From assembly GCF_021903335.1 (NCBI RefSeq), contig NZ_CP074364.1: a stretch of 32,000 bases of DNA; one strand, 5' to 3'. Position numbers and translations under genes: made by a program. The DNA comes from Xanthomonas cerealis pv. cerealis. Its GTDB lineage: Bacteria; Pseudomonadota; Gammaproteobacteria; Xanthomonadales; Xanthomonadaceae. Within the stretch, counting starts at the first letter, position 1; every line of letters begins with the position of its first letter. This document shows, one piece after another, positions 9,901 to 29,911 of this stretch. Below the pieces are notes generated by a model, which saw only the letters and a program-made list of their open reading frames with translations, ran no database searches and was not told the origin of the DNA.

Positions 9901-10270
9901 TGAGGAAGCCGGAATCCATGTGCTTGAACACACGCTGCCGCAGGCCCTTGAACGCCTTCGCCGCCCGCGCGCCCAGCGTGGAGCGGCGCAGCGCGCCCAG
10001 CGCGGCGAAGCCGGCATGCAACCCCAGCGTCATCCACGACACGGTCAGTGGCCCGCCGACTTGCACGTTGGTCGGGATGGCCACATTGATGCCGGTCGGC
10101 AGCAACAGCGAACGCAGCGGCTTCTTGGGCTTCTTGAACCGGAACGGCGGGATCAGCCCGGCGAGATTGCAGTCCAACACCGGCACCGCCAGCCGCGAGA
10201 ACGGGTCGCCGTCGGCCGACACCGTCTTGCTGCCCATGAAGATCTCTTCGCCATCGAACTGCGGCCCCAT
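6995..10270 (-). pseudogene. Rhs core pseudogene (copy 4): N-terminally deleted, internal TGA, no C-terminal toxin
   Basis: ORFs 7181..10270 plus 6995..7180 are collinear with residues ~74-1150 of the intact Rhs genes (offset 7927 nt from copy 2). The PVWVGNVA Trp codon of the intact copies (cca at 15108-15110) reads tca here (TGA, 7181-7183). Rhs homology stops near 7050, right after ...YPGTFVPLALIEKE, so there is no C-terminal core, DPxGL motif or toxin. Confidence 0.85.
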
Positions 10271-10357
10271 CGGCAGGCTCAGCTGCGGCGGAGCCGGTAA
10301 GGGCGGACGGCGGCGGCTCGGTCCAGGCGGGGATCTCGTTGTCCAGCGGATGGCGGA
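7050..10357 (-). repeat. Direct repeat unit R3 (~3.3 kb), a degenerate third copy of R1/R2
   Basis: The offset is 7927 nt from R2 (7704..7898 = 15631..15825, and 9324..9542 = 17251..17469). It has scattered substitutions and lacks 421 bp and 21 bp relative to R2. Confidence 0.85.
10291..10357 (-). pseudogene. Remnant of the 3' tail of the 541-aa vgrG-adjacent gene, fused to Rhs copy 4 by a deletion
   Basis: The sequence gagccggtaagggcggacgg...cggctcggtccaggcggggatctcgttgtccagcggatggcgga matches 24640-24756 and 18639-18726, minus a 21-nt internal deletion. It ends at the same novel junction ggcgga|agccttatatcc seen at 18726. Confidence 0.7.
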
Positions 10358-10420
10358 AGCCTTATATCCAAGGCAATAAGTCGCACGCAGTAATTGGATA
10401 CCAAGTGCCTCCTCTCAGCA

Positions 10421-10879
10421 TCAGCGACCACCGCCCTGCTCGCTAGCAAACTTCTCCCAGAGTAAGTCTGATATATATTCAGCAAACTGGGGCATCGATG
10501 ATGCGGAAGGCGGAGCATTTTCTTCTGTATATGATGCAGAGTCGCCATTCACCCTTAAAAAACTTCGACTACCCCGAAGTCCTTTGTAAAAGAGCAAATT
10601 ATCAATATCTTTAGCCACAAAATCAGGCTCCCGCCTTATTACAGGCCACTCGCCCGACTCGATAGCCAAAGTAACAATATTATGAACAGGAAGTATACGC
10701 CCGGATTCAACTATGTCGTCCGTATATGTGAAATCGCCTTTGAAATTATTAAAAAACTCTGCCAATCTCCACTTTCCATCCATGTAAATTATTTTACCAA
10801 ACCCGTAACCGCGGCCGCGAAGAGGGATAGCAAAGACATCCCCGACTGACAGCAACGACTTGCCTCGCTTAATAACCAT
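10421..10879 (-). CDS. Putative immunity protein for the orphan GIY-YIG-like Rhs toxin (Imm26-like by eye)
   Basis: Low-GC ORF directly downstream of the orphan toxin. The ATG at 10879 has AGGTGG 6-7 nt upstream; the track start at 10888 is GTG. The N-terminus, MVIKRGKSLLSVGDVFAIPLRGRGYGFGKIIY, resembles the xGDvfxiPLxdGxyGyg pattern of some polymorphic-toxin immunity families. The family call is weak. Confidence 0.6.
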   Translation of the reverse strand: MVIKRGKSLLSVGDVFAIPLRGRGYGFGKIIYMDGKWRLAEFFNNFKGDFTYTDDIVESGRILPVHNIVTLAIESGEWPVIRREPDFVAKDIDNLLFYKGLRGSRSFLRVNGDSASYTEENAPPSASSMPQFAEYISDLLWEKFASEQGGGR

Positions 10880-10984
10880 CAAACCCACCTATGTTCTGCA
10901 AACGGAGGGAGGACTGCTCATCGCATCATAATGTTTCTTGTATGCTATACCTCTCTCATCTTGTCTATTTACATCAAAGCCCAC

Positions 10985-12601
10985 CTACATATTACCTTCA
11001 CACCCAGGCCCTAAAGGCTTTCCGCGCTGAGAAGTCCGGAGCGCAGTCTCATTATATTTTTCAATATAAAAATGCTCCTTGCCTCTAGCCTCCGCATAAG
11101 TCCGTGCAGAATTCAACTCAATACTTTCAAGCTCGCCGTGAAGTCTACGACTTTCTTGATGTTCGTTCATGCGATCCCAGAACCTAGAGTCCTCGGTCAA
11201 CCCAACGTATTTAACGTCACCACTTTTTTTATCAACCAATGCATAAATTGTGTATCCCTTGCCATCTGCCCCAGTGTACTCAAGGTCAATTAAGCCAAGC
11301 GGATCAACCCAAGAAGTGGAACTGGGCGCATACTTATAAAAGTCGATTCCCGCAACAAGCCCCAACGGATCCCTGCTTACATATTGCCCGGCGATTGTAT
11401 CAAAATATCTATACCGGTTATAATTAAGGCCACTCTCGCCATCGAAATACTGCCCCTGATAACGAATATTGTTCTCTACTTCAGCGACAGATGACGAATA
11501 AGCACGCCCCCAAGCGCTATAGTTAACGGACCAAACAGTCTCTCCTGCACTATTTGTCATCCGCGTAGGACATCCATTGGGATCGACCTGATAGTGATAG
11601 CTCACCGATCGCCATCCCCCTGATTCAGCCGACCTGGAAAAGCTGAATTGCAGTTCTTCTTTTGCTCTATCCGCTGCGGCGAGCGCATTAACTTCCGGCG
11701 CATCTGCCGCCGATGTATTGACGGCGACATAACGGCTACCCGCCACCTGAGTCTTGCTGGAAGCGGACGGTTCGCCCCATGCACCCAAGGCGACCAAGTT
11801 CGACGGCTTTTGCTCGCCCTCTGCCGATGCCTCATCGGATTTCGCCACACCAGTTGGCGGATCGAGCAAGGCTCCCGCAATCACAGGTGCTTTAGTTCCC
11901 GCCCCCTGCCCCAGCGCCAGGTCTCCGCCCAGCGTGCCCAGCCCACCACCACCAGGCGGCTTGCCGGACTTGATGGCTGTCCGCGTCACCATCGTCGCAT
12001 GCTTTGCAGCGCCGTCGGCCGGTGCCAGTTTGGGTGCGGACGACGCCAGCACGCCCAGCGGCGCGGATGGCGTTCGCTGCGGCGGGGACATGTCTGCGGG
12101 CGCGGATGGCTTTGGAGCCTGGGTGGAATCCGAGCCGCGACTGTCCGTCAACGCATGCTTAGCCACAGCCGGCGCATCGGGTTGCGATATCTGCGAGATC
12201 GAACTTGTAGCGAGCTGCGCCAACTCGAGCGGCGCAGCACACTGCTCCTTCTCGATCAACGCCAGCGGCACGAAGCTGCCTGGGTAGTACACGTACTCCC
12301 GCGTGCGCTCATGTAGGCGCTTGAGCTTGTCCTGGCGCTTGCGTACGTTGCCGCGCGCGTCGTAGGCGAATTCGGTGCGCAGGCCTTCGGCGTCGGTGAC
12401 CGCCACGGTGCGGCCGACCGCGTCGTATTCGAACACGGTGACGCCGTCCAGCGCGTCGATCTCGCACAGCGGCAGGCGGTGCTCGTCGAACTTGACCAGC
12501 GATACGTGGCCGAGCGAGTCGGTCACCTGGGTCTCGCGCAGCAGGTCGTCGTAGGCGAAACGGTAGTCGTACAGGCCGCCGTCGCCCCAGGCGTGCACCA
12601 C
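10985..12601 (-). CDS. Orphan Rhs fragment: short piece of Rhs core, internal deletion, low-complexity linker, C-terminal Rhs core and GIY-YIG-like nuclease toxin
   Basis: It starts in the middle of the Rhs core (RVVHAWGDGGLYDYRFAYD; DNA homology runs up to ~12630). At 12346/12347, FAYDARGN is joined directly to VRKRQDKLKRLHERTREYVYYPGSFVPLALIEKE, so about 640 core codons are missing. Next come YHYQVDPNGCPTRM...YNRYRYFD...WVDPLGL and a 101-aa tail. There is no canonical start or RBS, only an in-frame GTG. Confidence 0.8.
   Translation of the reverse strand: MVHAWGDGGLYDYRFAYDDLLRETQVTDSLGHVSLVKFDEHRLPLCEIDALDGVTVFEYDAVGRTVAVTDAEGLRTEFAYDARGNVRKRQDKLKRLHERTREYVYYPGSFVPLALIEKEQCAAPLELAQLATSSISQISQPDAPAVAKHALTDSRGSDSTQAPKPSAPADMSPPQRTPSAPLGVLASSAPKLAPADGAAKHATMVTRTAIKSGKPPGGGGLGTLGGDLALGQGAGTKAPVIAGALLDPPTGVAKSDEASAEGEQKPSNLVALGAWGEPSASSKTQVAGSRYVAVNTSAADAPEVNALAAADRAKEELQFSFSRSAESGGWRSVSYHYQVDPNGCPTRMTNSAGETVWSVNYSAWGRAYSSSVAEVENNIRYQGQYFDGESGLNYNRYRYFDTIAGQYVSRDPLGLVAGIDFYKYAPSSTSWVDPLGLIDLEYTGADGKGYTIYALVDKKSGDVKYVGLTEDSRFWDRMNEHQESRRLHGELESIELNSARTYAEARGKEHFYIEKYNETALRTSQRGKPLGPGCEGNM
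10988..11290 (-). other. GIY-YIG-like nuclease toxin domain of the orphan Rhs-CT
   Basis: The sequence after DPLGL is IDLEYTGADGKGYTIYALVDKKSGDVKYVGLTEDSRFWDRMNEHQESRRLHG...ARGKEHFYIEKYN. TIY and YVG are 11 residues apart, followed by Arg, His, then Glu and Asn. This is the GIY-YIG order of conserved residues. GC is low. Confidence 0.6.
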
Positions 12602-12733
12602 CCGCCAATGCGCGTCGTAGGCGCCTTCTCTCCAAGGGGGACTACAGCAGATCTCACTACTTGGCTTCTGAAAGAACTTTCAGCAACATCGATAAATTTC
12701 ATCATTCATTACTTTATCGCCAGACATTGACTA

Positions 12734-13282
12734 TCAATCAGGCTTTTCTGCCGCTTCTTCTAGCCATCTAATCAAAGCACTGTTAGCCGAGCCATTTAGC
12801 CTTAGGGCTCTCTCAGTATTCGAATAAGTCGGAGGAATCAATTCGACATTAATCAGAACGCTTCTTCTAGGTTGATTCTTTGAAAAAATACCCTCTGAGT
12901 CAAGCATACTCATCGCACGCTCCATCGCTATTATTCTTGAATCAAGCTCAATCAGCCAACCCTCGGAATCAAGACTTTCTATTCCCGGCCTAGCTCCAAA
13001 AACCGCCTGGAGACCGGCAAAGGCATCGCCAGCGTAGTCGATGTAAGGCGAATCGGCATAAGACCACCTGACATACTCGAAATACTCCTCAGACTCCTGG
13101 CCTTTTTGTTTTTCCCTAGCCAACGCTTGCTCAGACCATGCAGAAAGGAAAGGAGGATGACCTTCTTCAGTAGTTACCAATACGCAATAATAAAAATTTT
13201 CATCATGCTTTTCTTCGAATAGTGTAGAGAATGCCTGCTTGGAGCAAGCATATATCTCACACACCAGATCATCATCGAACAT
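12734..13282 (-). CDS. Putative second immunity/accessory protein of the rhs2 cassette (DUF4303-like by eye)
   Basis: 182-aa low-GC ORF lying 16 nt downstream of the first immunity gene. The pattern ...AFSTLFEEKHDENFYYCVLVTTEEGHPPFLSAWSEQAL...YVRWSYADSPYIDY resembles DUF4303 proteins, which are often found next to polymorphic toxins. Confidence 0.55.
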   Translation of the reverse strand: MFDDDLVCEIYACSKQAFSTLFEEKHDENFYYCVLVTTEEGHPPFLSAWSEQALAREKQKGQESEEYFEYVRWSYADSPYIDYAGDAFAGLQAVFGARPGIESLDSEGWLIELDSRIIAMERAMSMLDSEGIFSKNQPRRSVLINVELIPPTYSNTERALRLNGSANSALIRWLEEAAEKPD

Positions 13283-13298
13283 TTAGTTTATTGCAACA

Positions 13299-13667
13299 TC
13301 AAGCAGAAAAACCAAAAACACCGACAAGCGTCAAGCCGTTGTACTTGGAACCGACAGTGACTGAACCGTCAAAATCGATCATACTGAAACAATGGCTGGC
13401 CTGGGTAATCCCAAAAGCACTACAAGCACTCAGAAGCTCATCTTCGAACTGGTCGGAATACGGCACCTCAATTATGACATCTTCAACAGACGTGGGGCCA
13501 CCCGCGTTATAAGCCGAGAACTTATCGAAATCGAACCACTCTTTTTGGGTGTCCTTGCAAAACCCACACTCGGCTCCGTATTTTTCAACATCGAAATATT
13601 TCTCCCATTCCCTATCGTTTCCAGGGTAGACGCCAAGCCACACATGGATACTTTTATCGTTTTTCAT
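13299..13667 (-). CDS. Putative immunity protein of rhs2 (Imm22-like by eye)
   Basis: 122-aa low-GC ORF whose ATG lies 3 nt after the rhs2 stop. MKNDKSIHVWLGVYPGNDREWEKYFDVEKYG...WFDFDKF matches the hvWlGxf...eeYf...yDxDf pattern I associate with Imm22-type immunity proteins. Confidence 0.6.
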   Translation of the reverse strand: MKNDKSIHVWLGVYPGNDREWEKYFDVEKYGAECGFCKDTQKEWFDFDKFSAYNAGGPTSVEDVIIEVPYSDQFEDELLSACSAFGITQASHCFSMIDFDGSVTVGSKYNGLTLVGVFGFSA

Positions 13668-13670
13668 TGA

Positions 13671-16600
13671 TCACCTGCACTTGAGTTTTCTAGCCATAGA
13701 CCCACCATTTCTCACATGCTGCCGCATGAACTTCTTTATAATCCTTACTGCGCCTAATTTTGTATTAGCCCTTCCCAGTCGATTAGACAGATCAATATGC
13801 GCATGGGAACTTGCCCGCGCAGATTGACCGGCGGGCAAAGGCTTACCCGTTGAGTGAGGCCCACTTAGTGTCGCCCCCGGCCTCCTAGGATCAGCAACAT
13901 TTTCAAACCAAACGTCATCTACGGGAGAGGAAAGTTTCATAAGTTCTTCATAGCTGAAACCGAGGGACTTCGCCTTCGCAGCCATGGATACTGGAAACCA
14001 CTCGTGTCGGCCGCCAGAACCTCGCAAAGCCGATTGGACCTGATCCCTAGTTTTGGGATCGGCCATTGCATCAACTATGTCTTGCTCGTTTGCCGCGTTA
14101 AACCAATCGCCAAACCCTTGGCCTGCATTACCCCACGGCGTCGAAATCCACCCCAATGGATCTGCCCACTGAAGCGAGTTGTAGGCATACTGGTAAAGAT
14201 TAAGACCTCCAAGCAGGCCAATCGGATCAGCCCCAATATACTGCCCCAGACGGGCGTCATAGTACCTATATCTATTGTAGTTCAGGCCAGTCTCTTCATC
14301 AAAAATTTGGCCCTGATATCGCAAGCAAGTATCAATCAAATTTATGTGCTGAACTAGCACTCCGCCCCAGGCAGCATAACTGACCGCCCAGAGTATTTCG
14401 CCCTTAGCACTTGTAACTCTGGTTGGGCACCCATTTAGATCAACATGATAGTGATAAACGACTGAGCGCGACTCAAGAATGTCCTCCTGATTCGGAAGAT
14501 GTGAATTAGTTCCTTCACTCTCGTCCAACCCTGTCGATTGAGACGAGGCAGGGCTGAACATGCTTTTCGTTGTCTCAGCTAGATGAGTATCCCTGCGATC
14601 AATGCTAGAGCTCCACAATTGCATTCCCATGCGCATGGGTGACGACGATTGCTTGAGCAAAGCGTCAGCCTGTCGCTTACTGGTCACAGGGACTTGCGTC
14701 GCCTCCGAAAACTCTAAACCTTCTACGGCGTTCTCTTCAACAGCCCGTACAGATAGAGGTATTGCATCGCCGGTAGTGCCTCCGAGTGCTGTACCTCCAA
14801 GCACGCCGAAGCTGTTTGCTGAAATCTGTCGCGCACCTACTGACGCTGCGAATTTCGCTGCTCCGTCAGGCCTTCCCGCGTTAGCGATTTTACCGGGCGA
14901 GGTTGATACAGCCTTGCTGGCCGAGTGTGTACCCGCTCTCTCGCCGTCTGCAGTGTTCGCCTTTGATGCCGTCCGCGGTTCTTTTTCCACCAGCGCAAGC
15001 GGTACGAACGTGTCCGGGTAATAAACATACTCGCGCGTACGCTCATGCAGCTTGGCAAGCTTCTCCTTACGGCGCTTGGCCTCGATCAGGTTCGCGACAT
15101 TGCCCACCCACACCGGCGCCGCGTCCGGTTCGTCGTGGGCCTGCTTCACTTCGCCCAGCAGCGCGTCCCCGTCCCAGTAGAACCAGGTGGTGTGGGTCGG
15201 GTTGCGCTTGAACACGCGCCGGCCCAGCGGGTCGTAGCCGTAGTGGGTGGTTTGGCCGGCCTTGCGGCTTTCGGCCAGGCGGTGGTTGGCGTCCCAGAGC
15301 AGTTCCAGGTCGTCCGGTTCCGGGCCGTTCGGGCTGCCCTTGCGGACCAGGTCGCCGGCGCGGTCGAACACGTAGTGCACGCCGTCGTAGCTGCCTTCGC
15401 GGGTCCACTGCACCTGCTGCTCGTCGTCGCCGCCGGCCACCTTGCGCAGCTGCACCTGCTGCACGCGCGTGGCCAGGCGGTCGCCGGCCGGATCGTTGAA
15501 GAAGCGCTCGATGCGGCCCTTCGGGTCGGTGTGCTGCAGCAGCCGGCCCAGCACGTCGTAGCGGTATTCGTCCACGCCCTGCGCGCTGTCGCGGCGGTGG
15601 GTCAGGTTGCCGGCGCGGTCGTAGTCGTAGGTGGTCTCGAACAGCGGCGCGGCATCGCGCAACACGGTCTGCGCGGTCAGCAGGCTGCGCCCGTCGTACT
15701 GGAACTGGCGCTGCACCTGCGCGCTGAGCTGTTCGCGGGTGGTGCGGCCCAGCGCGTCGCGCTCGATGGCGATGGGCGCATCGTCGTTGATCGCCACCTC
15801 GACCACCTGGTCGCGCAGGTCGTAGCCGAACGCGATCCGGTTGCCGGCGGAGGTCTCGCGCAGCACGCGGTTGCCCACTTCGTCATAGCCGTAGCCGACG
15901 CGGAAGCCGTCCTGCACTTCCTCCAGCACCTGCCCCAGCGCGTCGAACCTGCGCGTGGCGGTGCGATGCCGGTTGCGCAGTTCCACCAGCTGCCCGCGCG
16001 CGTCGTAGGCGAACTGCTCCTGCACCTGCTGGCCCGGCGTGCGTATGTCCGGCAAGGTCTTCCTGACGATGCGCCCGAGCGGGTCGGTGGCGAAGGCAAT
16101 GCGCTGGCCCATCGGGTCGATCGTCGCGGTCAGCCGCCCGCAGGCGTCGTACTGGTAGTGCCGCGACTGGCCCCAGTAGTCGGTCTCCTCGACGATGCGG
16201 CCCAGCGGATCGCGGCGCAGCCGGTAGGCCTCGCCGCGCTGGTTGATCACCGCCACCAGCTGTTCTTCGCTGTCGTAGCGGTATTCCACCGTGTGCCCGT
16301 CCGGCTGCACGCGCTTGCCGATCTGGCCGATGCCCACGTAGTGCAGCCGCGTCTGCGCCCCGGCTTCGTCCACGTAGCGCACCAGCTGGTCCTCGGCGTC
16401 GTAATCGCACTGCACCTGCCCGCCGTCGGCCGAGCGGATGCGCAGCAGCCGGCCCTTGGCGTCGTAGTCGTAGTGCGTGGCCTGGCCCAGCGGATCGACC
16501 TGCTTGTGCAGCCGCCCCAGCGCGTCGTGCGCGTAGCGGCTCTCGTGGCCCAGCGCGTCGCGCAGCCAGGCCAGCAGGCCGTAGCGGTCGTAGCCCAGCT

Positions 16601-22500: not shown

Positions 22501-24462
22501 GTGCGTGGCCTGGCCCAGCGGATCGACCTGCTTGTGCAGCCGCCCCAGCGCGTCGTGCGCGTAGCGGCTCTCGTGGCCCAGCGCGTCGCGCAGCCAGGCC
22601 AGCAGGCCGTAGCGGTCGTAGCCCAGCTTGGTCTGCGCGCCGCGCGGGTTGCGCTGCGCCACCAGCAGGCCGTGCGCATCGTAGTCATAGTGCGTGGTGG
22701 CGCCCAGCGGATCGGTCTGCGTCTGCAGCAGCCCGCGCGCGTCGTGCGCCTGGTGCCAGGCGTGGCCGCCCGGGTCGGTGACCGACAGCAGCCGGTCGTC
22801 CTCGTCGTAGACCTGGTGCAGCGTGCTGCCGTCGGGGCGGCGCAGGCGCAACAGGTTGCCGCGCGCGTCGTAGGCGAACGCGGTGCGCAGGCCTTCGGCG
22901 TCGGTGACCGCCGCGGTGCGGCCGACCGCGTCGTACTCGAACACGGTGACCCCGTCCAACGCATCGATCTCGCACAGCGGCAGGCGGTGCTCGTCGAACT
23001 TGACCAGCGATACGTGGCCGAGCGAGTCGGTCACCTGGGTCTCGCGCAGCAGGGCGTCGTAGGCGAAACGGTAGTCGTACAGGCCGCCGTCGCCCCAGGC
23101 GTGCACCACCCGCCACTGCGCGTCGTAGGCGTAGTGGAACGACAGGCCGACGCGGTCGGTATGCCGGACTATGCGGTGCTGGCGATACTCAAACGTGCGC
23201 GGCACGCCCAGCGCGTCCTCGGCGGCGACCAGGTCGCCTTCCACATAGCGATAGGCCACCAGCGGATGGGTCAGGCCGGTGGCCGGATCGTGCAGTTGCA
23301 GGCGGTCGATGCGGCCGTGCCGCGACTGCACCTCGATGAAGCGGCCCTGCAGCCCGCCCACGCCGCGTTCGACGATGCGCACCAGGTGGCCGTCGCCGCG
23401 CTCGAAGCGCCAATGGTTGCCGCAGGCGTCCTCGACCTGCGCGATCGGCAAGGTTTGCGCGCGCGGCAGCACGCCGACACCGGCCGCCGGCGCATAGGCG
23501 AAGCGGTAGCGTAGGTCGGACTTGGTCCGCACCAGCAGGTCGGTGCCTTCGCGCAGCAGCCGCGCGCCGTCGACGAACTCGACGACCGGGACGCCGTCGG
23601 CGTCCGGCAGCTGCGGGAACACGGCCACGCTGTGGCCGTCGTGGAACAGCACCACGCCGTCGGCGTCGATCTCCAGGCGGATGTCGGCCGGCGTCTGCCA
23701 GCCGTGGCCGCAGGCGCCGGCCTCCTCGCCGCGCCCGGAACCGTAGCCGCGCGACCAGGCCAGCGGCAGCCGCCCGGGGATCGCGAAGTCCTCGTGTTGC
23801 ACCGACACGCTGCCGTCGCGGATGTCCACCGGCTCGGCGCGCAGCACCTTGCACTTGAGGAAGCCGGAATCCATGTGCTTGAACACACGCTGCCGCAGGC
23901 CCTTGAACGCCTTCGCCGCCCGCGCGCCCAGCGTGGAGCGGCGCAGCGCGCCCAGCGCGGCGAAGCCGGCATGCAACCCCAGCGTCATCCACGACACGGT
24001 CAGTGGCCCGCCGACTTGCACGTTGCTCGGGATGGCCACATTGATGCCGGTCGGCAGCAACAGCGAACGCAGCGGCTTCTTGGGCTTCTTGAACCGGAAC
24101 GGCGGGATCAGCCCGGCGAGATTGCAGTCCAACACCGGCACCGCCAGCCGCGAGAACGGGTCGCCGTCGGCCGACACCGTCTTGCTGCCCATGAAGATCT
24201 CTTCGCCGTCGTACTGCGGCCCCATCGGCAGGGTCAGCTGCGGCGCCCACGCGCCCAGCGGAATATGGATGTCCAGCCCGCCGGTGCCGGCGGTGGCGCG
24301 CTTGACCCCGTTGACGGTGACCGTGGCGCCGAGGAACGGCAGGTAGTCGAACGGATCCAGCACGATGCCGATATGCGGCGTCGGCAGCGGACACGGCGGC
24401 AGCTGATACATGTGGATGTCGATGCCCAGCTGCGGGTCGAAATGCTTGGCGGCAGTGCTCAT
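19597..24462 (-). CDS. Intact Rhs-family T6SS effector (rhs1, 1621 aa) with the same N-terminal ~1110 aa as rhs2 but a different linker, C-terminal core and 159-aa toxin
   Basis: AAGGAG lies upstream of the ATG at 24462. Translation matches rhs2 for ~990 aa, and all overlapping six-frame ORFs are identical at an offset of 6028 nt. It ends ...YHYHVDPNGCPTRV...YNRYRYYD...WMDPLGL plus a low-GC tail. Confidence 0.95.
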   Translation of the reverse strand: MSTAAKHFDPQLGIDIHMYQLPPCPLPTPHIGIVLDPFDYLPFLGATVTVNGVKRATAGTGGLDIHIPLGAWAPQLTLPMGPQYDGEEIFMGSKTVSADGDPFSRLAVPVLDCNLAGLIPPFRFKKPKKPLRSLLLPTGINVAIPSNVQVGGPLTVSWMTLGLHAGFAALGALRRSTLGARAAKAFKGLRQRVFKHMDSGFLKCKVLRAEPVDIRDGSVSVQHEDFAIPGRLPLAWSRGYGSGRGEEAGACGHGWQTPADIRLEIDADGVVLFHDGHSVAVFPQLPDADGVPVVEFVDGARLLREGTDLLVRTKSDLRYRFAYAPAAGVGVLPRAQTLPIAQVEDACGNHWRFERGDGHLVRIVERGVGGLQGRFIEVQSRHGRIDRLQLHDPATGLTHPLVAYRYVEGDLVAAEDALGVPRTFEYRQHRIVRHTDRVGLSFHYAYDAQWRVVHAWGDGGLYDYRFAYDALLRETQVTDSLGHVSLVKFDEHRLPLCEIDALDGVTVFEYDAVGRTAAVTDAEGLRTAFAYDARGNLLRLRRPDGSTLHQVYDEDDRLLSVTDPGGHAWHQAHDARGLLQTQTDPLGATTHYDYDAHGLLVAQRNPRGAQTKLGYDRYGLLAWLRDALGHESRYAHDALGRLHKQVDPLGQATHYDYDAKGRLLRIRSADGGQVQCDYDAEDQLVRYVDEAGAQTRLHYVGIGQIGKRVQPDGHTVEYRYDSEEQLVAVINQRGEAYRLRRDPLGRIVEETDYWGQSRHYQYDACGRLTATIDPMGQRIAFATDPLGRIVRKTLPDIRTPGQQVQEQFAYDARGQLVELRNRHRTATRRFDALGQVLEEVQDGFRVGYGYDEVGNRVLRETSAGNRIAFGYDLRDQVVEVAINDDAPIAIERDALGRTTREQLSAQVQRQFQYDGRSLLTAQTVLRDAAPLFETTYDYDRAGNLTHRRDSAQGVDEYRYDVLGRLLQHTDPKGRIERFFNDPAGDRLATRIHQVQMRKVAGGDDEQQVQWTREGSYDGVHYVFDRAGDLVRKGSPNGPEPDDLELLWDANHRLAESRKAGQTTHYGYDPLGRRVFKRNPTHTTWFYWDGDALLGEVKQAHDEPDAAPVWVGNVADLIGVKRRKEKLAKLHERTREYVYYPGSFVPLALIEKEQGPALHEAPQPATTTSIAQISRSDAPPVALTDSRGSDSTQPPTPSAPADMSPPQRTPSAPLGVLASSAPKLAPADGAAKPAMMAAPAAIKSGKQPGGGGLGTLGGDLALGQGAGIKMPAIGGALVDPPADVAKSDEASTDGEQKPSNLVALDMRLMGDPIVSNRMPDPISATSSSTADASVEMMTASRERELLPTGLVEGAATWRSAIYHYHVDPNGCPTRVTCGDGEVVWSANYSGWGRASESSSKINSFLRYQGQYYDQETCLHYNRYRYYDSTAGCFLSIDPLGFLAGDNLYNFGKNTIGWMDPLGLTVEKLTGDVLWDRIAREVDAAASFAEKALDRGITRGTQWGKIYQEILAGNERYANIPVQMARGNAIQQMADVVLSKNHYMQHEAQVQSNRGHMDGLKNARGNTVRPDYQARLKDGRVGIIDITTSGQRSKISKYGSVHATNAIHGARNASGGEPARGSC
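19600..20076 (-). other. rhs1 C-terminal toxin domain, unclassified
   Basis: The 159 aa after DPLGL are TVEKLTGDVLWDRIAREVD...GTQWGKIYQEILAGNERY...ARGNAIQQMADVVL...GNTVRPDYQARLKDGRVGIIDITTSGQRSK... The RPD...(h)IDIT stretch only weakly recalls a PD-(D/E)xK core. I recognise no family. Confidence 0.5.
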
Positions 24463-24756
24463 CGCTACGCTCCTTCGTCGCTACAGCGCACGGGCCAGCG
24501 CGCGCAGGAGCGCGCGCACGTCGTCGCGATGCTCCACGCCCAGCCACAGCCGCCGCGCCCATGCCGATCAGCACGAACAGCGGCCAGCACGGCCAGTTTG
24601 CGCGCGCTCATGCGGTGGCCTCGGTCAGTCCGGAACGCCCCGGCGCCTGCGCGTCGCACGCGGCGGCGGAACCGGTCAGGGCGGACGGATCGGGCAGCGG
24701 CTGCGTCGCCGGCGGCTCGGTCCAGGCGGGGATCTCGTTGTCCAGCGGATGGCGGA
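21131..24756 (-). repeat. Direct repeat unit R1 (~3.6 kb): tail of the 541-aa gene, small ORF and the 5' ~3.3 kb of rhs1
   Basis: Collinear with 15103..18726 at an offset of 6028 nt (6030 beyond the two indels). Every overlapping ORF-track translation is identical (for example 21659..21853 = 15631..15825, and 23271..23972 = 17243..17944). Confidence 0.9.
24465..24611 (-). pseudogene. Frameshifted counterpart of the 42-aa small ORF, upstream of rhs1
   Basis: The ATG at 24611 overlaps (ATGA) the stop of the 541-aa gene. Compared with 18453..18581 there are two single-nt insertions about 27 nt apart. From that ATG the reading becomes MSARKLAVLAAVRADRHGRGG..., which is not hydrophobic. The TM and C-terminal segments sit in the other two frames. 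Confidence 0.35.
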
Positions 24757-26233
24757 TGTCCGGCAGCCCGTTCCAGGTCGGATGCAGGAAGTCGCGCCCC
24801 ACCGCCACCACCTTGCGGAAGAACGCGTCGCCGCCCTGGATCAGGCGTTCGCGCTCCTGCGCGACGCGATGGAAGGCCTGTTCGAAACCGGCATGCAGCG
24901 CGGCCTCGATGCGATCCAGTTGCGCGCTGTCCGGGCGCGGCCCGAGCTGCGCGGCCTGTGCCTCGGCCTGCGCGTGCAGCGCGGCCACCGCTTGTAGATA
25001 CGACGCGGCGCACTGCTCGAGCTTCTGCGCGCGTGGCCTGTCCTGCAGCAGCAGCAGATCCTGCAGCGTTTGCGGCAAGGTGGTGGTGCGGCGGTCCGCG
25101 GGCGGCAACGGCTTGGCCGCACGGATCGCCTCCAACCCATGCGCGCGCGCGGCCTCGCGTTGGCCGTCCTGGGCCAGGCAGAACGCGGCCATGCGATAGC
25201 CTTCGATCACGAACATCGGGTTGGGGATCTCGGCGGCGGCCTTGGCCGCGGCGACGTAGGTTTCGGCGGCACGGCCGGGCTGGCCGGCGACGAACCAGGT
25301 GCCGGCCTCGCCGTACCAGCTCTGCATCACCAGGTCGCGCGCGGCCGGGTGCTGCATGGCCAGGGCCTGCAGGCCGCACTCGCGCGCCTGCCGATAGCTG
25401 GCGATGGCCTGCGGATACTGCTTTTCCTTCAGCCAGCCGCCGGCCAGCATCATGTTCAGCACCACCTGCTGGTCGGGCCAAGCGTGCCGCTGGGCCAGCG
25501 CCAATGGCCGCTCGACGCGCTGCGCCAGTTGCGTCGCGCTGCCGCGCTCCAGCACCGTCATCAGGTCGCTGAGCATCTGCCGGTAGGCCACCGCAGGCCC
25601 CGCGCCGCCCGACTGCGCCGCGGTTTCGCGCGCGATGTCGAACATGTCCAGCGGCGGCTCGATGCGCCGCGCGATCGCCGCGTGCCGCTCCAGCAGCGGC
25701 TGCCAGCGCGGATCCTCGTGGGTGTCGACCAGCACCAGGCGGAGCGCCGGCGACGGCGCCGCCGCCAGCGCCGCGTCCATCCAGCGCGCGAATGCATCGC
25801 CAGAGGTGGTCCGCTCCGGTTCCAACACCACCGCCAGATAGCGCAGATGCACCTGGTGGTAGGCGGCGAAGGAATCCAGTACCTCGACCACGCCCAGCGC
25901 GCTGTCCGGGTGCGAGGGTCCCGGGCCGGGCCAGCCCAGTTCCACGCCCTGCTCGCGCAGCGCGCTCTGGCTGCCCAGGTAGCTGGCGTGCAGCGCCTGC
26001 TTCAGCGCGCGGCTGTAGCCGAAGCCCGTGTCGAACGGCGTATCCAGGCGCAGGAAGTAATCCGGCGCGTTCCAGTCGCCGGGATGTTTCTGCGCCTCGA
26101 AGAAGGCGGCCAGCAGGCGCGCGGCGTTGGCCGGCACACGCCATACCAACAGGCGCAGCGCCGGGTCCTCGCTGGCCTGCATCCACGCATCGCCAAGCAG
26201 CTCGATACGTCGTTCGACCGGATTCTTGCTCAC
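24608..26233 (-). CDS. Unclassified 541-aa protein with a TPR-like helical region; positional candidate for a VgrG-Rhs adaptor/chaperone
   Basis: The GTG at 26233 has GGGAGGG ~10 nt upstream and lies 22 nt after the vgrG stop. GC3 is high. The central region looks like helical repeats (QYPQAIASYRQARECGLQALA...GRAAETYVAAAKAAAEI...GYRMAAFCLAQDGQREAARAHGLEAIRAA). I saw no DUF4123, DUF2169 or DUF1795 signature. Confidence 0.75.
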   Translation of the reverse strand: MSKNPVERRIELLGDAWMQASEDPALRLLVWRVPANAARLLAAFFEAQKHPGDWNAPDYFLRLDTPFDTGFGYSRALKQALHASYLGSQSALREQGVELGWPGPGPSHPDSALGVVEVLDSFAAYHQVHLRYLAVVLEPERTTSGDAFARWMDAALAAAPSPALRLVLVDTHEDPRWQPLLERHAAIARRIEPPLDMFDIARETAAQSGGAGPAVAYRQMLSDLMTVLERGSATQLAQRVERPLALAQRHAWPDQQVVLNMMLAGGWLKEKQYPQAIASYRQARECGLQALAMQHPAARDLVMQSWYGEAGTWFVAGQPGRAAETYVAAAKAAAEIPNPMFVIEGYRMAAFCLAQDGQREAARAHGLEAIRAAKPLPPADRRTTTLPQTLQDLLLLQDRPRAQKLEQCAASYLQAVAALHAQAEAQAAQLGPRPDSAQLDRIEAALHAGFEQAFHRVAQERERLIQGGDAFFRKVVAVGRDFLHPTWNGLPDIRHPLDNEIPAWTEPPATQPLPDPSALTGSAAACDAQAPGRSGLTEATA

Positions 26234-26255
26234 GCTTCGGATGCCCTCCCAGGCT

Positions 26256-28499
26256 TCAGCAGTTCAGCTTGATTTCCGAGCCGTTGACCGACACCCCGGA
26301 GCCGTCGATGACGATCACCGAACCGCCGGCGGAAATAGTGATCTTCTCGCCGAGGATCTCGATCGCCGCGCCGCCCACCGTCGCGGTGAGGTTGCTGCCC
26401 GAGGCCAGGGTCATGTTGCCGTTGGACATCAACATGTGGGTGCCGGTGATGCTCTGCTCCATGTCGCCTTGGACGCTGACCGTGCGTGCGCCGACGTTGG
26501 CGTCCTCCACGGCGCCCTGCACGCTGCGTTTGTCCAGGCCGGTGATGCTGACCTCGCGCCCGGCGCTCAGCTGCTCGGTGACCTTGCCGATCACCTGGCG
26601 CAGCGAGGTCTGGGTGACGGTCTCCTTCCACGCGCCGGTGCGCTGGCTGGTGTAGTTGCCGGTCAGGGTGGTGGCGAAATTGCCGGTGATGGTTTCGGTG
26701 TAGCCGGCCGCGGCGATGGTCTTGGTCTCGCCGGCCTGGTAGGTTTCGGTGACCGCGCCGGTGACGCTGGTGCTGCGCGTGCCGGTGACGCCCAGCGTGT
26801 CGTTGCCGGTCACGGTGATGCCGCGGTTGGCGCCGACGCTGATGCTCTGGTTGGACCCCACGTCCATGCGGTGGTCGACCGCCACGCTGGTGCTCTTGTT
26901 GTTCTTCACCGTCGCGTTCTGGTCGTTGAGCACGGTGGTCACCATGTCGCGCTGCGCGCGCATGTTCAACAGCTCGCCGCCGGCGGTGTCGTGCATGGTC
27001 ATTTCGTTGTAGCCGCCGCCTTTGACCGTCTTGGACTTCAGGCCGCTGACCTCCATGCCGAACGGCGGCATGTTGTCTTCGTTGAACACGCGGCCGGTGA
27101 TGATCGGCCGGTCCGGATCGCCATCGAGGAAATCCACCACCACCTCCTGGCCCACACGCGGCGGCGACACGCCGCCCATATCGGCGCCGGCCCACGGACT
27201 GGCGCTACGGATCCAGCACGAGCTGTTCTCGCGAAACTGGCCCTTGCGGTCCCAGTGGAACTGCACCTTCACTCGCCCGTAGCGGTCGGCGTACAACTCC
27301 TCGCCCGGCGGCCCGACCACGGTGGCGGTCTGCGGGCCGGGCATGCGCTGCTGCGGCGTGTCGCGCAGCGGCCGGTACGGGATCTTGCGCCGCAGCGCGG
27401 TGGCGCTGCAACGATAGGTCGGCGCTTCGGCCTGGCTGTAGTCGCTGGAGAAGTTGTTGCGGCCTTCGCGATGCAGCTGCACGACGAAGAACTGTCGGTC
27501 GTCCTCGCTGCGGCCGATGAAATCCGGATGCCGTTCAAGGGTGAAACACCCCCCGGCCTGCAGCTCGGTACTGTTGCCGGCGCCTTCGAACAATTTGGTG
27601 GGCCACGCCGCTTCCTCGCTACGGATCGCCGCCAATGCCTCGCCGACGCGGCTGTCGGCGAAACGCGCCGCGCCGTCGTAGTGGTAGCGCTCCAGTTCGG
27701 GGAGCGCGCCGACCGGGATCGACCGCGCCGTGCTGGCCGACAGCGCAGTACGCGGCTGCTTGAAATCGAAGCTACTCACCGCATGCGCGGTGGGGCCGAC
27801 CCGGCGCCGCGCCGACCAACTGTGCAAGCCGGGCGTCCGCAGCACGCCCTGGTCGGACACGAACGCCACAGGCGCCGGCTCGCCCAGTGCCGTGGAGGCG
27901 GTGGAATCGTCGGCCAGCACCATCGTGTGCGCGCCCTCGGCGTGCACGAACGTGTAGTAGATGCCGGCGTCCTCCAGCAGGCGCGAGACGAAGGTGAAAT
28001 CCGATTCGTTGTACTGCACGCAGTACGGCAGCTTGGGGAAGTTGCCGGCATTCAACTCGTACTTGTAATCGGCCAGTTGGGGGTATTCGCCGAACACCTG
28101 CTCGACGATCTCCAGCACGCTCAGATCCTGGAAGATGCGGCAATTGCTGGTGTACTGCAAAAACGCGAACCACGGGGCGACCTCGGCGCGATACGCGGCC
28201 AATTCGCTTTCGGCGCCGATCAGCGCGAACTCCTTGACGTAACCGTGCACGACACGGTCGTCGAACTCGTCGCCCAGGCTGAGCTGGATCGGCTGGCCGA
28301 CCAGTTGCTTCAATTCCAGGCGCCGCTGCGCGGACAGCAGGTCGACGGCGAACGCATAGGGCGCCGATACCGTTTCCGTGCCTTCGAAGCATTTGACGAT
28401 GAAGGTGTCAGGATCCAGCGCTGTGGTAACCCGGATCAGGCGCCGATCCTGGTTCAGACGTAGCGCGGCAACTCCACTGGATATCATTTCGGCGTGCAC
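26256..28499 (-). CDS. vgrG: T6SS spike protein VgrG/TssI (747 aa, no C-terminal effector extension)
   Basis: The GTG at 28499 has AGGAG 5-6 nt upstream. The N-terminus is typical of VgrG: RLIRVTTALDPDTFIVKCFEGTETVSAPYAFAVDLLS, then CRIFQDLSVLEIVEQVF, YCVQYNESDFTFVSRLLEDAGIYYTF and FHWDRKG. A repetitive beta-helix tail ends ...GSGVSVNGSEIKLNC. Confidence 0.95.
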   Translation of the reverse strand: MHAEMISSGVAALRLNQDRRLIRVTTALDPDTFIVKCFEGTETVSAPYAFAVDLLSAQRRLELKQLVGQPIQLSLGDEFDDRVVHGYVKEFALIGAESELAAYRAEVAPWFAFLQYTSNCRIFQDLSVLEIVEQVFGEYPQLADYKYELNAGNFPKLPYCVQYNESDFTFVSRLLEDAGIYYTFVHAEGAHTMVLADDSTASTALGEPAPVAFVSDQGVLRTPGLHSWSARRRVGPTAHAVSSFDFKQPRTALSASTARSIPVGALPELERYHYDGAARFADSRVGEALAAIRSEEAAWPTKLFEGAGNSTELQAGGCFTLERHPDFIGRSEDDRQFFVVQLHREGRNNFSSDYSQAEAPTYRCSATALRRKIPYRPLRDTPQQRMPGPQTATVVGPPGEELYADRYGRVKVQFHWDRKGQFRENSSCWIRSASPWAGADMGGVSPPRVGQEVVVDFLDGDPDRPIITGRVFNEDNMPPFGMEVSGLKSKTVKGGGYNEMTMHDTAGGELLNMRAQRDMVTTVLNDQNATVKNNKSTSVAVDHRMDVGSNQSISVGANRGITVTGNDTLGVTGTRSTSVTGAVTETYQAGETKTIAAAGYTETITGNFATTLTGNYTSQRTGAWKETVTQTSLRQVIGKVTEQLSAGREVSITGLDKRSVQGAVEDANVGARTVSVQGDMEQSITGTHMLMSNGNMTLASGSNLTATVGGAAIEILGEKITISAGGSVIVIDGSGVSVNGSEIKLNC

Positions 28500-29163: not shown

Positions 29164-29239
<76 letters not shown>

Positions 29240-29275: not shown

Positions 29276-29911
29276 TCAACCATTGCCTTCGATTTTCTTC
29301 GCATTCTTGTCCGCCACCGCGGCGCGCTCGTCGGCGCGCAGGCTCGGCCAGGCCGCATGCAGGTACTGGATGCCGGACAGCAGGGTCAGGATCGAGGCGA
29401 TCGCCAGCGTCCAGTCGCCGATGTGGAAGATGAACAGGCCCATCCACACGCTCTCCGGCGGCGAACCGTCGGGCATCACCGAGTACAGCAGGCACAGCAG
29501 CGCGACCATCTGTGCGGTGGTCTTGACCTTGCCGATCATCGCCACCCGCACCTTGGCGCGCTGGCCGATCTCGGCCATCCACTCGCGCAGCGCCGACACC
29601 GCGATCTCGCGGCCGACGATCACCGCCGCCCAGAACGCCATCCACGGCGTCGGGTGGCCCTGCACGATCAGGAACAGCGCCACCGCGACCATCAGCTTGT
29701 CGGCCACCGGGTCCAGGAACGCGCCGAACGCCGAATATTGGTGGTAGCGCCGCGCGACCCAGCCGTCAAGCCAGTCGGTGAACGCGGCCAGGCCGAAGAT
29801 CGTCGCCGAGGCGAAATTCGTCCACTTGTACGGGAGGTAGAACACCAGCACCAACACCGGAATCATCACGATGCGCAGCAGCGTCAGCCAGGTGGGGATG
29901 GTCAACTTCAT
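29276..29911 (-). CDS. pgsA: CDP-diacylglycerol--glycerol-3-phosphate 3-phosphatidyltransferase
   Basis: 211-aa polytopic membrane protein with the CDP-alcohol phosphatidyltransferase motif DWLDGWVARRYHQYSAFGAFLDPVADK. It sits in the uvrC-pgsA-tRNA-Gly order, the same as in E. coli. Confidence 0.9.
   Translation of the reverse strand: MKLTIPTWLTLLRIVMIPVLVLVFYLPYKWTNFASATIFGLAAFTDWLDGWVARRYHQYSAFGAFLDPVADKLMVAVALFLIVQGHPTPWMAFWAAVIVGREIAVSALREWMAEIGQRAKVRVAMIGKVKTTAQMVALLCLLYSVMPDGSPPESVWMGLFIFHIGDWTLAIASILTLLSGIQYLHAAWPSLRADERAAVADKNAKKIEGNG

Follow-up and report, generated by a model that had tools for sequence, protein, structure and literature searches.

Background

Recognition between the spike and the toxin in type VI secretion (by the T6SS) is now ascribed to a few helper families, namely Eag (DUF1795), Tap (DUF4123), DUF2169/Tvp and DUF2875. 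Non-canonical PAAR-like domains with exposed hydrophobic proline motifs need a cognate chaperone, which is encoded between vgrG and the effector gene (PMC11883445, PMC13373197). Proteins of the DUF2169/TvpA type co-occur strictly with VgrG and the non-canonical PAAR-like PIPY (DUF4150) domains, and bind an exposed, proline-containing hydrophobic patch, which keeps the tip loadable (Sachar et al. 2025, PMC11883445; Monlezun et al. 2026, PMC13373197). Eag chaperones, in turn, serve prePAAR effectors characterised by the AARxxDxxxH motif and by N-terminal transmembrane domains (Ahmad et al. 2020, PMC7773334), and the DUF4123 adaptors Tap/Tec serve effectors without PAAR-like domains and bind the C-terminal helix-turn-helix of VgrG (PMC11582642, PMC11883445). 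The gene described here, referred to as X, lies between a vgrG and an rhs gene in a 32,000-nucleotide stretch of contig NZ_CP074364.1 of Xanthomonas cerealis pv. cerealis (the window), and its 541-residue product would add one family to this list.

A gene in the same position has been reported in the vgrG6 operon of Stenotrophomonas rhizophila, where it is entered as 'Tap6, hypothetical protein, V6 adaptor, 59.5 kDa'. Its product was found in the cell proteome, as were VgrG6 and the effector Rhs (PMC13340143, Table 1). The tap6 gene is conserved and the Rhs toxin tip varies over 14 families (bioRxiv 10.64898/2026.07.13.738213); the adaptor role of Tap6 was proposed from its position only (PMC13340143; bioRxiv 10.64898/2026.07.13.738213).

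An earlier reading of the window, made without database searches (the sequence-only reading), had put X forward as a candidate for a new class of adaptor or chaperone. This proposal is supported by profile searches and by a survey of co-occurrence in two directions, from which we infer the role itself. X is probably a cytoplasmic chaperone or adaptor dedicated to a single clade of T6SS Rhs effectors, whose PAAR-like N-terminus it would serve, with a role resembling that of DUF2169 and Eag proteins and an architecture combining a pseudo-STAND core with tetratricopeptide repeats (TPR).

A widespread family outside the known adaptors

The 541-codon reading frame noted in the sequence-only reading is borne out, the gene beginning with GTG on the minus strand, 22 nt past the vgrG stop. 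Full-length homologues number 78 at E≤1e-118, with identities of 46-99%, and X is therefore a genuine gene and not an artefact of GC-rich DNA. The closest database match, 99% identical, is named 'hypothetical protein [Xanthomonas translucens]', and an alignment of 50 X sequences contains 38 invariant columns. An overlapping open reading frame (ORF) of 573 amino acids in another frame (24465-26186) was rejected as noise rich in Arg, Ala and Gly, spurious long ORFs being common in DNA of 70% GC.

The supposition that the protein falls outside DUF4123, DUF2169 and DUF1795 agreed with the outcome of profile searches, which covered X itself and 54 diverse relatives. At E≤10 the sole Pfam match of X was TPR_2 (E=8), with none to those three families or to DUF2875, and NCBIfam returned a single line, LcrH_SycD (E=0.2, 11 bits against a cut-off of 105). 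Sequence searches of the PDB with X and with its profile yielded designed or consensus TPR proteins only (E≥0.03). PADLOC gave no match for X, so that a defence-system STAND protein is not supported. The 54 relatives were compared with Pfam at E≤1, giving a list of 25 families that comprises all those matched by more than one relative and nine single-member ones; DUF4123, DUF2169, DUF1795 and DUF2875 are not among them. TPR_12 was matched by 37/54 relatives (best E 3e-11) and TPR_MalT by 17/54. The profile check named in the sequence-only reading thus assigned neither X nor its relatives to a housekeeping family, the matches being to generic and MalT-like TPR models. In public databases the homologues are called 'hypothetical protein' or 'tetratricopeptide repeat protein', with a few stray 'PilF' or 'YbgF family' labels.

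Against 1.84 billion representative proteins, the X profile matched 994 clusters at E≤1e-3, of which the weakest may be generic TPR proteins, 715 at E≤1e-10 and at least 378, clustered at 50% identity, at E≤1e-30. Three forms can be distinguished. The long form (about 540 residues) occurs in Xanthomonadales, Collimonas and Erwiniaceae, the medium form (about 505) in other Proteobacteria and Nitrospirales, and the short form (about 425), which is devoid of the hairpin and tail described below, in Planctomycetota, Fibrobacterota and Archangium. The accompanying VgrGs measure about 747-764, 650-700 and about 700 residues, respectively.

Two-way linkage to vgrG and rhs

The survey of homologues across genomes, a check also named in the sequence-only reading, revealed an almost absolute link of X with vgrG and rhs in both directions. 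For the forward test, 67 genome loci containing X were fetched and the 64 with enough flanking sequence were scored. An Rhs gene lies downstream of X in all 64, and the first ~200 residues of its product are homologous to those of Rhs1, the effector encoded behind X in the window (38-92% identity). A vgrG gene on the same strand lies upstream in 63 of the 64, and in related loci the gap between vgrG and X is usually 1-30 nt. These loci span alpha-, beta-, gamma- and delta-Proteobacteria, Nitrospirales, Planctomycetota, Fibrobacterota and Archangium (Myxococcota). In the sole locus without vgrG, that of Archangium (L069), the upstream genes gave no Pfam match. Two Planctomycetota loci (L068, L070) have an extra 1.1-1.3 kb, presumably one more gene, between vgrG and a short-form X.

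For the reverse test, 80 metagenome loci, among those listed, were fetched by motifs of RhsN (the N-terminal domain of Rhs1 and its relatives) alone, and X was found directly upstream in 78 of them. Of the two exceptions, one locus offers no more than 415 nt of flanking sequence, and in the other the rhs is a second, tandem copy preceded by another rhs.

Pairs of loci whose X proteins are at least 85% identical differ at the far end of the effector. The C-terminal 130 residues of Rhs are less than 30% identical in 35 of 38 such pairs, and RhsN stays at 83-100%. Since X is constant while toxin tips change, it goes with the delivery end of the effector and not with the toxin. Furthermore, a metagenomic protein of 1812 residues found on three contigs (P0193) joins, in frame, a short-form X, a Gly/Ala linker, RhsN and the rest of Rhs, with the start methionine of Rhs kept. 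This fusion points to a possible physical association between X and Rhs.

Two further loci were recorded during the survey. A decayed one (L079:3061-4853) carries a deletion that joins VgrG residues 1-342 to X residues 281-539, with an intact Rhs gene downstream. A contig labelled Bacillus subtilis SK7B5 (L008, JAHREJ010000013.1) carries a Stenotrophomonas-like module of vgrG, X, small ORF and rhs, in which VgrG is 74% and X 63% identical to those of the window; the module is almost certainly a contamination of the Bacillus subtilis assembly.

Predicted architecture of X

The sequence-only reading described X as a globular N-terminal part followed by TPR-like helical repeats, and this outline was confirmed by an AlphaFold2 model and by the TPR matches of the relatives. 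Built with the 50-sequence alignment, the model has a predicted local distance difference test score (pLDDT) of 90 and a predicted template modelling score (pTM) of 0.79, and comprises four parts, whose boundaries are given in Table 1. Conserved residues of the N-domain, with Trp, Arg and Phe prominent among them, include W17, W31, R32, F44, D58, F60, W101, P139, W151 and R165. The TPR region holds the most conserved motifs of the family, QxWFGEAG and IEGxRMAxxC, and its R347 is invariant. Neither a signal peptide nor a membrane segment is predicted in X.

Foldseek searches with the whole model returned only generic TPR proteins (Rap, kinesin light chain (KLC) and LGN), with E-values down to 3e-5. 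The tandem helix pairs, which match TPR profiles and folds, place X in the TPR superfamily; arrays of this kind are scaffolds that bind proteins and peptides. For this reason of generic matches to the whole model, the N-domain was also modelled alone, and it then matched ORC/Cdc6, MalT (8bob), Avs4 (8dgf) and the archaeal Walker-type ATPase paby2304. These matches are modest (E 3e-4 to 4e-3, template modelling (TM) scores 0.4-0.53), suggestive of a likeness to AAA+/STAND cores but not proof of homology. In the family proteins examined, Walker A (GxxxxGK[ST]) is absent from its expected site, which reads hhhW[RQCL]xxx[DN], and the Walker B acid is not conserved, the strand reading hhVLxP. Because the Walker motifs are absent, X looks like a nucleotide-blind STAND-like core with a TPR arm.

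The putative partner domain RhsN

RhsN has no Pfam match, neither to PAAR nor to DUF4150. A profile of the domain found only PAAR-repeat structures in the PDB, 4JIV (E 0.004) and 4JIW (0.03), with the segment FMGSxTVxADGDPFSR aligned to the PAAR repeat, and RhsN is on this basis taken as a divergent PAAR-like domain. Thirteen sequences from several phyla share 37 invariant columns. The domain begins with the prePAAR-like AAKHxDPxLGxDxH (more generally AAKxxDPxxGxDxH; AAKHFDPQLG... in Rhs1) and contains an invariant proline-rich stretch, PPxPxPxPLPTPH, as well as two repeats of the type 'GSxTVxxDGxPxS'. The invariant H17, H66 and C113 may form a zinc site.

The strict prePAAR motif AARxxDxxxH is absent from RhsN. 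In the first 250 residues of Rhs1 no transmembrane segment is predicted (maximum 19-residue hydropathy 1.25), and a weakly hydrophobic helix at residues 155-173 straddles the end of RhsN. Both absences are consistent with the lack of an Eag gene at the locus. RhsN is a distinct PAAR-like subtype that would merit its own family definition.

Organisation of the vgrG island

The window contains a vgrG island adjoining a tRNA-Gly gene, with all relevant genes on the minus strand (Table 1). Lying beside tRNA-Gly(GCC), pgsA and uvrC, the island occupies a tRNA-adjacent location of the kind typical for islands; its genes form an orphan vgrG cluster and are not part of the main T6SS locus.

Table 1. 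Features of the vgrG island, in the order of transcription (positions are those of the window)
Feature	Position	Strand	Evidence or remark
uvrC	29921-31984	-	
pgsA	29276-29911	-	
tRNA-Gly(GCC)	29164-29239	-	vgrG island starts directly after
vgrG, 747 aa, without DUF2345, first gene of the module	26256-28499	-	Pfam Phage_GPD 2e-85, Gp5_trimer_C, Phage_base_V
vgrG-X spacer, 22 nt, with GGGAGGG Shine-Dalgarno-like stretch	26234-26255	-	
X, 541 aa, GTG start, TGA stop; putative Rhs/PAAR-like-specific accessory protein	24608-26233	-	
X residues 1-207, alpha/beta domain, five strands	25613-26233	-	AlphaFold2 of the domain alone, pLDDT 89.5
X residues 213-397, about ten helices forming about five TPR-like pairs	25043-25597	-	AlphaFold2, Foldseek, Pfam of relatives
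X residues 399-482, long antiparallel helical hairpin and one helix	24788-25039	-	AlphaFold2
X residues 483-541, mostly disordered tail with conserved motifs WNGLPxxxHPLD and LPDP	24611-24787	-	AlphaFold2, pLDDT 26-88
Small ORF copy 1, 48 codons	24465-24611	-	ATGA overlap with X stop
Rhs1, 1621 aa: PAAR-like N-terminal domain, DUF6531, RHS repeats, RHS core, toxin tip	19597-24462	-	Pfam; PDB Rhs cages
RhsN (Rhs1 residues 1-155), divergent PAAR-like domain, presumed X partner	23998-24462	-	
Pentapeptide-repeat protein gene, overlapping the Rhs1 stop	18938-19603	-	Pfam Pentapeptide 4e-12
X 3' end remnant, copy 2, before Rhs2	18578-18726	-	identity, alignment, 21-mer match
Small ORF copy 2, intact, 42 aa, one membrane helix: MSSRKLAVLAAFVLIGMVAAAWLGVEHRDDVRAFLRALARAL	18453-18581	-	
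Rhs2, 1587 aa, tandem copy	13671-18434	-	
Imm22 gene, after Rhs2	13299-13667		
DUF4303 gene, after Imm22	12734-13282		
Orphan Rhs C-terminal fragment, with Imm26 gene	10985-12601	-	
Third X 3' end remnant	10290-10357	-	
Truncated Rhs, lacking about the first 79 residues of the PAAR-like domain	7181-10270	-	

The region 7181-24756 on the minus strand is a tandem array in which the 3' remnant of X, the small ORF, rhs and immunity genes recur. Positions 24580-24756 and 18550-18726 are 97% identical, and a boundary 21-mer is found at 24736-24756, 18706-18726 and 10337-10357, with 0 occurrences expected by chance. Three copies exist of the duplicated unit, which is made up of the final 48-49 or so codons of X, the small ORF and the complete rhs gene, with its boundary at about codon 493 of 541. 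The third copy has an internal deletion, so that its X remnant continues at about residue 79 of Rhs (7181-10270).

The sequence-only reading had stated that this 3' segment precedes every Rhs copy and ties the history of X to that of the effector. The first statement applies to the three copies that keep an N-terminus; the orphan C-terminal fragment at 10985-12601 has no such unit. The second was not borne out, as the boundary of a tandem duplication merely happened to fall inside X. Copies 2 and 3 have this boundary in common, with an identical low-GC left junction (GGTATC.AATTACTGC.TGCG.CTTATTG.CTTGGATATAAGGCT), and the duplication was accordingly rejected as a sign of co-evolution. The array was left by rhs modules that were duplicated in tandem or inserted one after another, and it is not independent evidence on the role of X. 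Rhs1 and Rhs2 have near-identical N-termini and cores, different toxin tips and different immunity genes, and a single X for both. From its position and Pfam match, the pentapeptide-repeat protein is a candidate immunity protein for Rhs1.

The ATGA overlap between X and the next ORF, noted in the sequence-only reading, exists at 24608-24611, although the overlapped frame is not rhs. The X stop overlaps the 48-codon small ORF (24465-24611), and Rhs1 starts at 24462. In lineages that lack the small ORF, X either overlaps rhs directly by ATGA or sits 13 nt away. The small ORF family consists of single-pass membrane peptides of 41-44 residues, mostly 42, that overlap the X stop by ATGA and follow the consensus M..K..h(TM)..W.G.EYRDEV.AFLRAL.RAL. 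Its outliers are one variant of 50 residues, a second 50-residue call that probably reflects an upstream start codon, and a truncated 34-residue copy in a fragmented locus. The peptide is present in Xanthomonas, Stenotrophomonas, Lysobacter, Rhodanobacter, Fulvimonas, Vulcaniibacterium, Mixta and Kalamiella, and absent at the loci of Collimonas, Luteimonas and all lineages with medium- and short-form X. Copy 1 in the window carries two 1-nt insertions relative to copy 2 and the orthologues (hydropathy 0.22 vs 2.45 in copy 2); being frameshifted and having lost the membrane helix, it is probably a pseudogene or a sequence error.

The GC content falls from about 0.70 to 0.47-0.58 in 10001-15000 and 19001-21000, which correspond to toxin tips and immunity segments. 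These low-GC segments hold the Imm26, DUF4303, Imm22 and pentapeptide-repeat genes, and the GC of X is native-like (0.70-0.73). The drop is consistent with horizontally acquired toxin/immunity cassettes. Downstream of the rhs array, a 310-residue ORF (5159-6091, minus strand) matches Peptidase_M15_4 (D-Ala-D-Ala carboxypeptidase-like, E=6e-15), and its neighbouring ORFs gave no Pfam match. This ORF may encode a further effector aimed at the cell wall, or be an unrelated gene.

Proposed role and alternatives

X is most likely a new T6SS toxin-loading helper, because its family, the few loci above aside, always accompanies the spike-toxin pair. In the proposed scheme, vgrG, X and rhs would be co-transcribed as a single module, and X would bind the N-terminal ~200 residues of Rhs, that is, the PAAR-like cone, whose surface is proline-rich and hydrophobic, together with the amphipathic helix that follows. 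Binding might occur through the groove of the TPR region (invariant R347, E344, Y326 and Y280), through the Trp-rich, nucleotide-blind AAA+/STAND-like domain, or through both. X would then hold the Rhs N-terminus soluble and competent until the VgrG tip is capped, and would remain in the producer cell after loading. The physical binding, the surface involved, the retention of X and its requirement for delivery are all inferred here.

Several points weigh against this interpretation. Synteny proves a functional linkage and does not identify a mechanism, and the suggested binding of X to Rhs or VgrG derives from genomic linkage and one natural fusion, P0193, which could itself reflect a frameshift, a lost stop codon or an assembly error. 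Tandem rhs copies (Rhs2 in the window and one at locus L150) have no X of their own, so that a single X would serve several Rhs proteins, unless the additional copies go undelivered. Moreover, the similarity of the N-domain to AAA+/STAND proteins is weak (TM 0.4-0.53), which leaves its evolutionary origin uncertain, and the published Tap6 accession, WP_181406191.1, is a presumed member of the X family.

The main rival, which we regard as unlikely, is that X is a Tap-like tether bridging VgrG and the Rhs cage and not a chaperone of the PAAR-like tip. X sits in the Tap gene slot, its alpha/beta and TPR modules could each take a partner, the long, medium and short forms accompany VgrGs of different lengths, and the gene in this slot is labelled 'adaptor' by the authors of the S. 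rhizophila study (PMC13340143). However, an effector endowed with a PAAR-like domain should dock directly on the VgrG tip, the identity of X tracks that of RhsN closely, and DUF4123 was matched neither by X nor among the families listed for the 54 relatives.

Export of X together with the spike, be it as a co-effector or as a structural passenger such as a sheath enclosing the Rhs N-terminus, is improbable. No catalytic or toxin motif is present in X and no cognate immunity gene accompanies it, its identity stays at 46-99% while true toxin tips turn over, and the known chaperones Eag, DUF2169 and DUF4123 are not secreted (PMC8728615, PMC11883445). These observations have to be set against the covalent union of X and Rhs in P0193, the existence of binary effector/co-effector modules (PMC8728615) and the flagging of TPR proteins near vgrG as possible effectors by predictors (PMC6653060, Table 1).

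Even less credit can be given to a STAND-type regulatory switch, in which the TPR arm senses a ligand and controls the expression, activation or self-cleavage of Rhs, with no part in loading. Although the domain order is that of MalT- and Avs-type STAND proteins (an NTPase-like core, then a TPR sensor), and both the Foldseek matches to MalT (8bob) and Avs4 (8dgf) and the TPR_MalT matches in 17/54 relatives fit such a switch, Walker A and B are missing from the family members examined, X has no DNA-binding or other output domain, and its tight translational coupling and strict link to one PAAR-like type suit a stoichiometric partner better. The idea that X is an immunity protein or antitoxin of Rhs, a function sometimes served by TPR and repeat proteins (Zhang et al. 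2012, PMC3482391), or a housekeeping TPR protein present by chance, as the 'PilF' and 'YbgF family' labels might imply, is close to refuted, given that X is found upstream of the toxin and stays conserved where toxin tips and the immunity genes downstream are exchanged, that its coupling to vgrG and RhsN extends across several phyla, and that no housekeeping family matches it.

Besides the chaperone or adaptor role preferred here, a more elaborate version can be imagined, though its chances are slim. X would be a domesticated, nucleotide-blind STAND-type module acting as checkpoint and chaperone at once, in which the Rhs tip lodged in the TPR arm switches the conformation or oligomerisation of X, and only correctly folded, toxin-loaded Rhs is passed to the VgrG tip; in Xanthomonadales, the 42-residue peptide would fix the place of this transfer at the inner-membrane T6SS baseplate. 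If true, it would make X a fifth, structurally unrelated class of T6SS loading factor and the first from an immune/regulatory-type ATPase scaffold.

Comparison with known loading systems

The closest precedent for the proposed chaperone role is, by analogy, DUF2169/TvpA. In both cases the gene lies between vgrG and an effector with a non-canonical PAAR-like N-terminus, the partner carries a proline-rich hydrophobic motif, VgrG and the PAAR-like domain co-occur strictly with the helper, and the proposed role is to keep the spike tip soluble and loadable. In contrast to that system, DUF2169 was matched neither by X nor among the families listed for the 54 relatives, and the fold of X appears AAA+/STAND-like with TPR where that of DUF2169 was described as novel; no DUF2169 structure was among the top Foldseek PDB matches of X. 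The partner of X is not recognised by DUF4150 and seems to retain the His/Cys residues of a PAAR-type zinc site. The co-occurrence of DUF2169 is with VgrG and DUF4150/PIPY, so that the pattern of X is analogous and not identical.

As for Eag, the chaperone gene there also lies directly upstream of a PAAR-Rhs gene and its product stabilises the effector N-terminus, and RhsN has a prePAAR-like start (AAKxxD...DxH). X differs in having no DUF1795 match, in its partner, which lacks the strict AARxxDxxxH and any predicted transmembrane segment, and in its size and build, Eag proteins being small beta-sheet dimers and X a 541-residue alpha/beta and TPR protein. The RhsB effector of A. citrulli, cited beside the Stenotrophomonas module, has an Eag chaperone and was set aside as not being X's system.

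With the DUF4123 adaptors Tap/Tec, X shares the slot after vgrG, a two-module architecture and specificity for an effector, and with TecT/co-TecT also the order of large protein, small protein and effector (Colautti et al. 2024, PMC11582642). It departs from them by the lack of a DUF4123 match and by the PAAR-like domain of its effector; moreover, the small ORF encodes a 42-residue membrane peptide and not a DUF4123 C-lobe. Identity with TecT/co-TecT of Pseudomonas aeruginosa was rejected, these being a split DUF4123 (PMC11582642) and X giving no DUF4123 signal. The Tla3-type adaptors (DUF2875) were matched neither by X nor among the families listed for its 54 relatives.

STAND proteins (MalT, Avs) and AAA+ initiators (ORC/Cdc6) resemble X in domain order, in providing the best Foldseek matches of the N-domain and in the MalT-like TPR of the relatives. 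X lacks their Walker A/B motifs, winged helix, output domain and sequence similarity, the TM-scores are low, and it is at most a degenerate, nucleotide-blind derivative of these NTPases. The class II chaperones of type III secretion (LcrH/SycD/IpgC) are TPR proteins, too, and in the bacterial cytoplasm they hold on to the hydrophobic parts of proteins destined for secretion. The parallel with X is one of analogy only, the LcrH_SycD match being insignificant (E=0.2). Among T6SS papers, 'TPR' also led to the trimethoprim marker Tp^R (PMC6612558), to the TPR domain of FAN1 (PMC9635880) and to generic mentions, all of which were discarded as false leads.

Tap6 of S. rhizophila is almost certainly the orthologue of X, judging from gene order and homology. 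It lies between a VgrG of about 748 residues and a PAAR-Rhs effector and is followed by the small conserved 'gene 310', probably the small ORF described here, and both its mass and the gene order agree with X; S. rhizophila homologues of 540 residues were found to be about 63% identical to X. What sets the two accounts apart is that Tap6 was not recognised as a distinct, phylum-spanning family. The positional idea of an adaptor has thus already been voiced, and the family, its architecture and its breadth are undescribed in the literature searched.

As a putative class of T6SS helper, the X family stands out for its pseudo-NTPase and TPR architecture, for its size and for its spread beyond Proteobacteria, to Planctomycetota, Fibrobacterota, Nitrospirales and Myxococcota. 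Being tied one-to-one to a PAAR-like domain, X can serve as a marker for Rhs effectors and toxin tips where Pfam sees no PAAR, and it offers a testable handle on PAAR-like tips that are unable to load unaided. This is of particular relevance for the plant-associated Xanthomonas, Stenotrophomonas, Lysobacter and Collimonas, in which the Rhs module diversifies fast. Set beside the systems described so far, X is a new family inside a known functional kind, probably that of the T6SS loading helpers.

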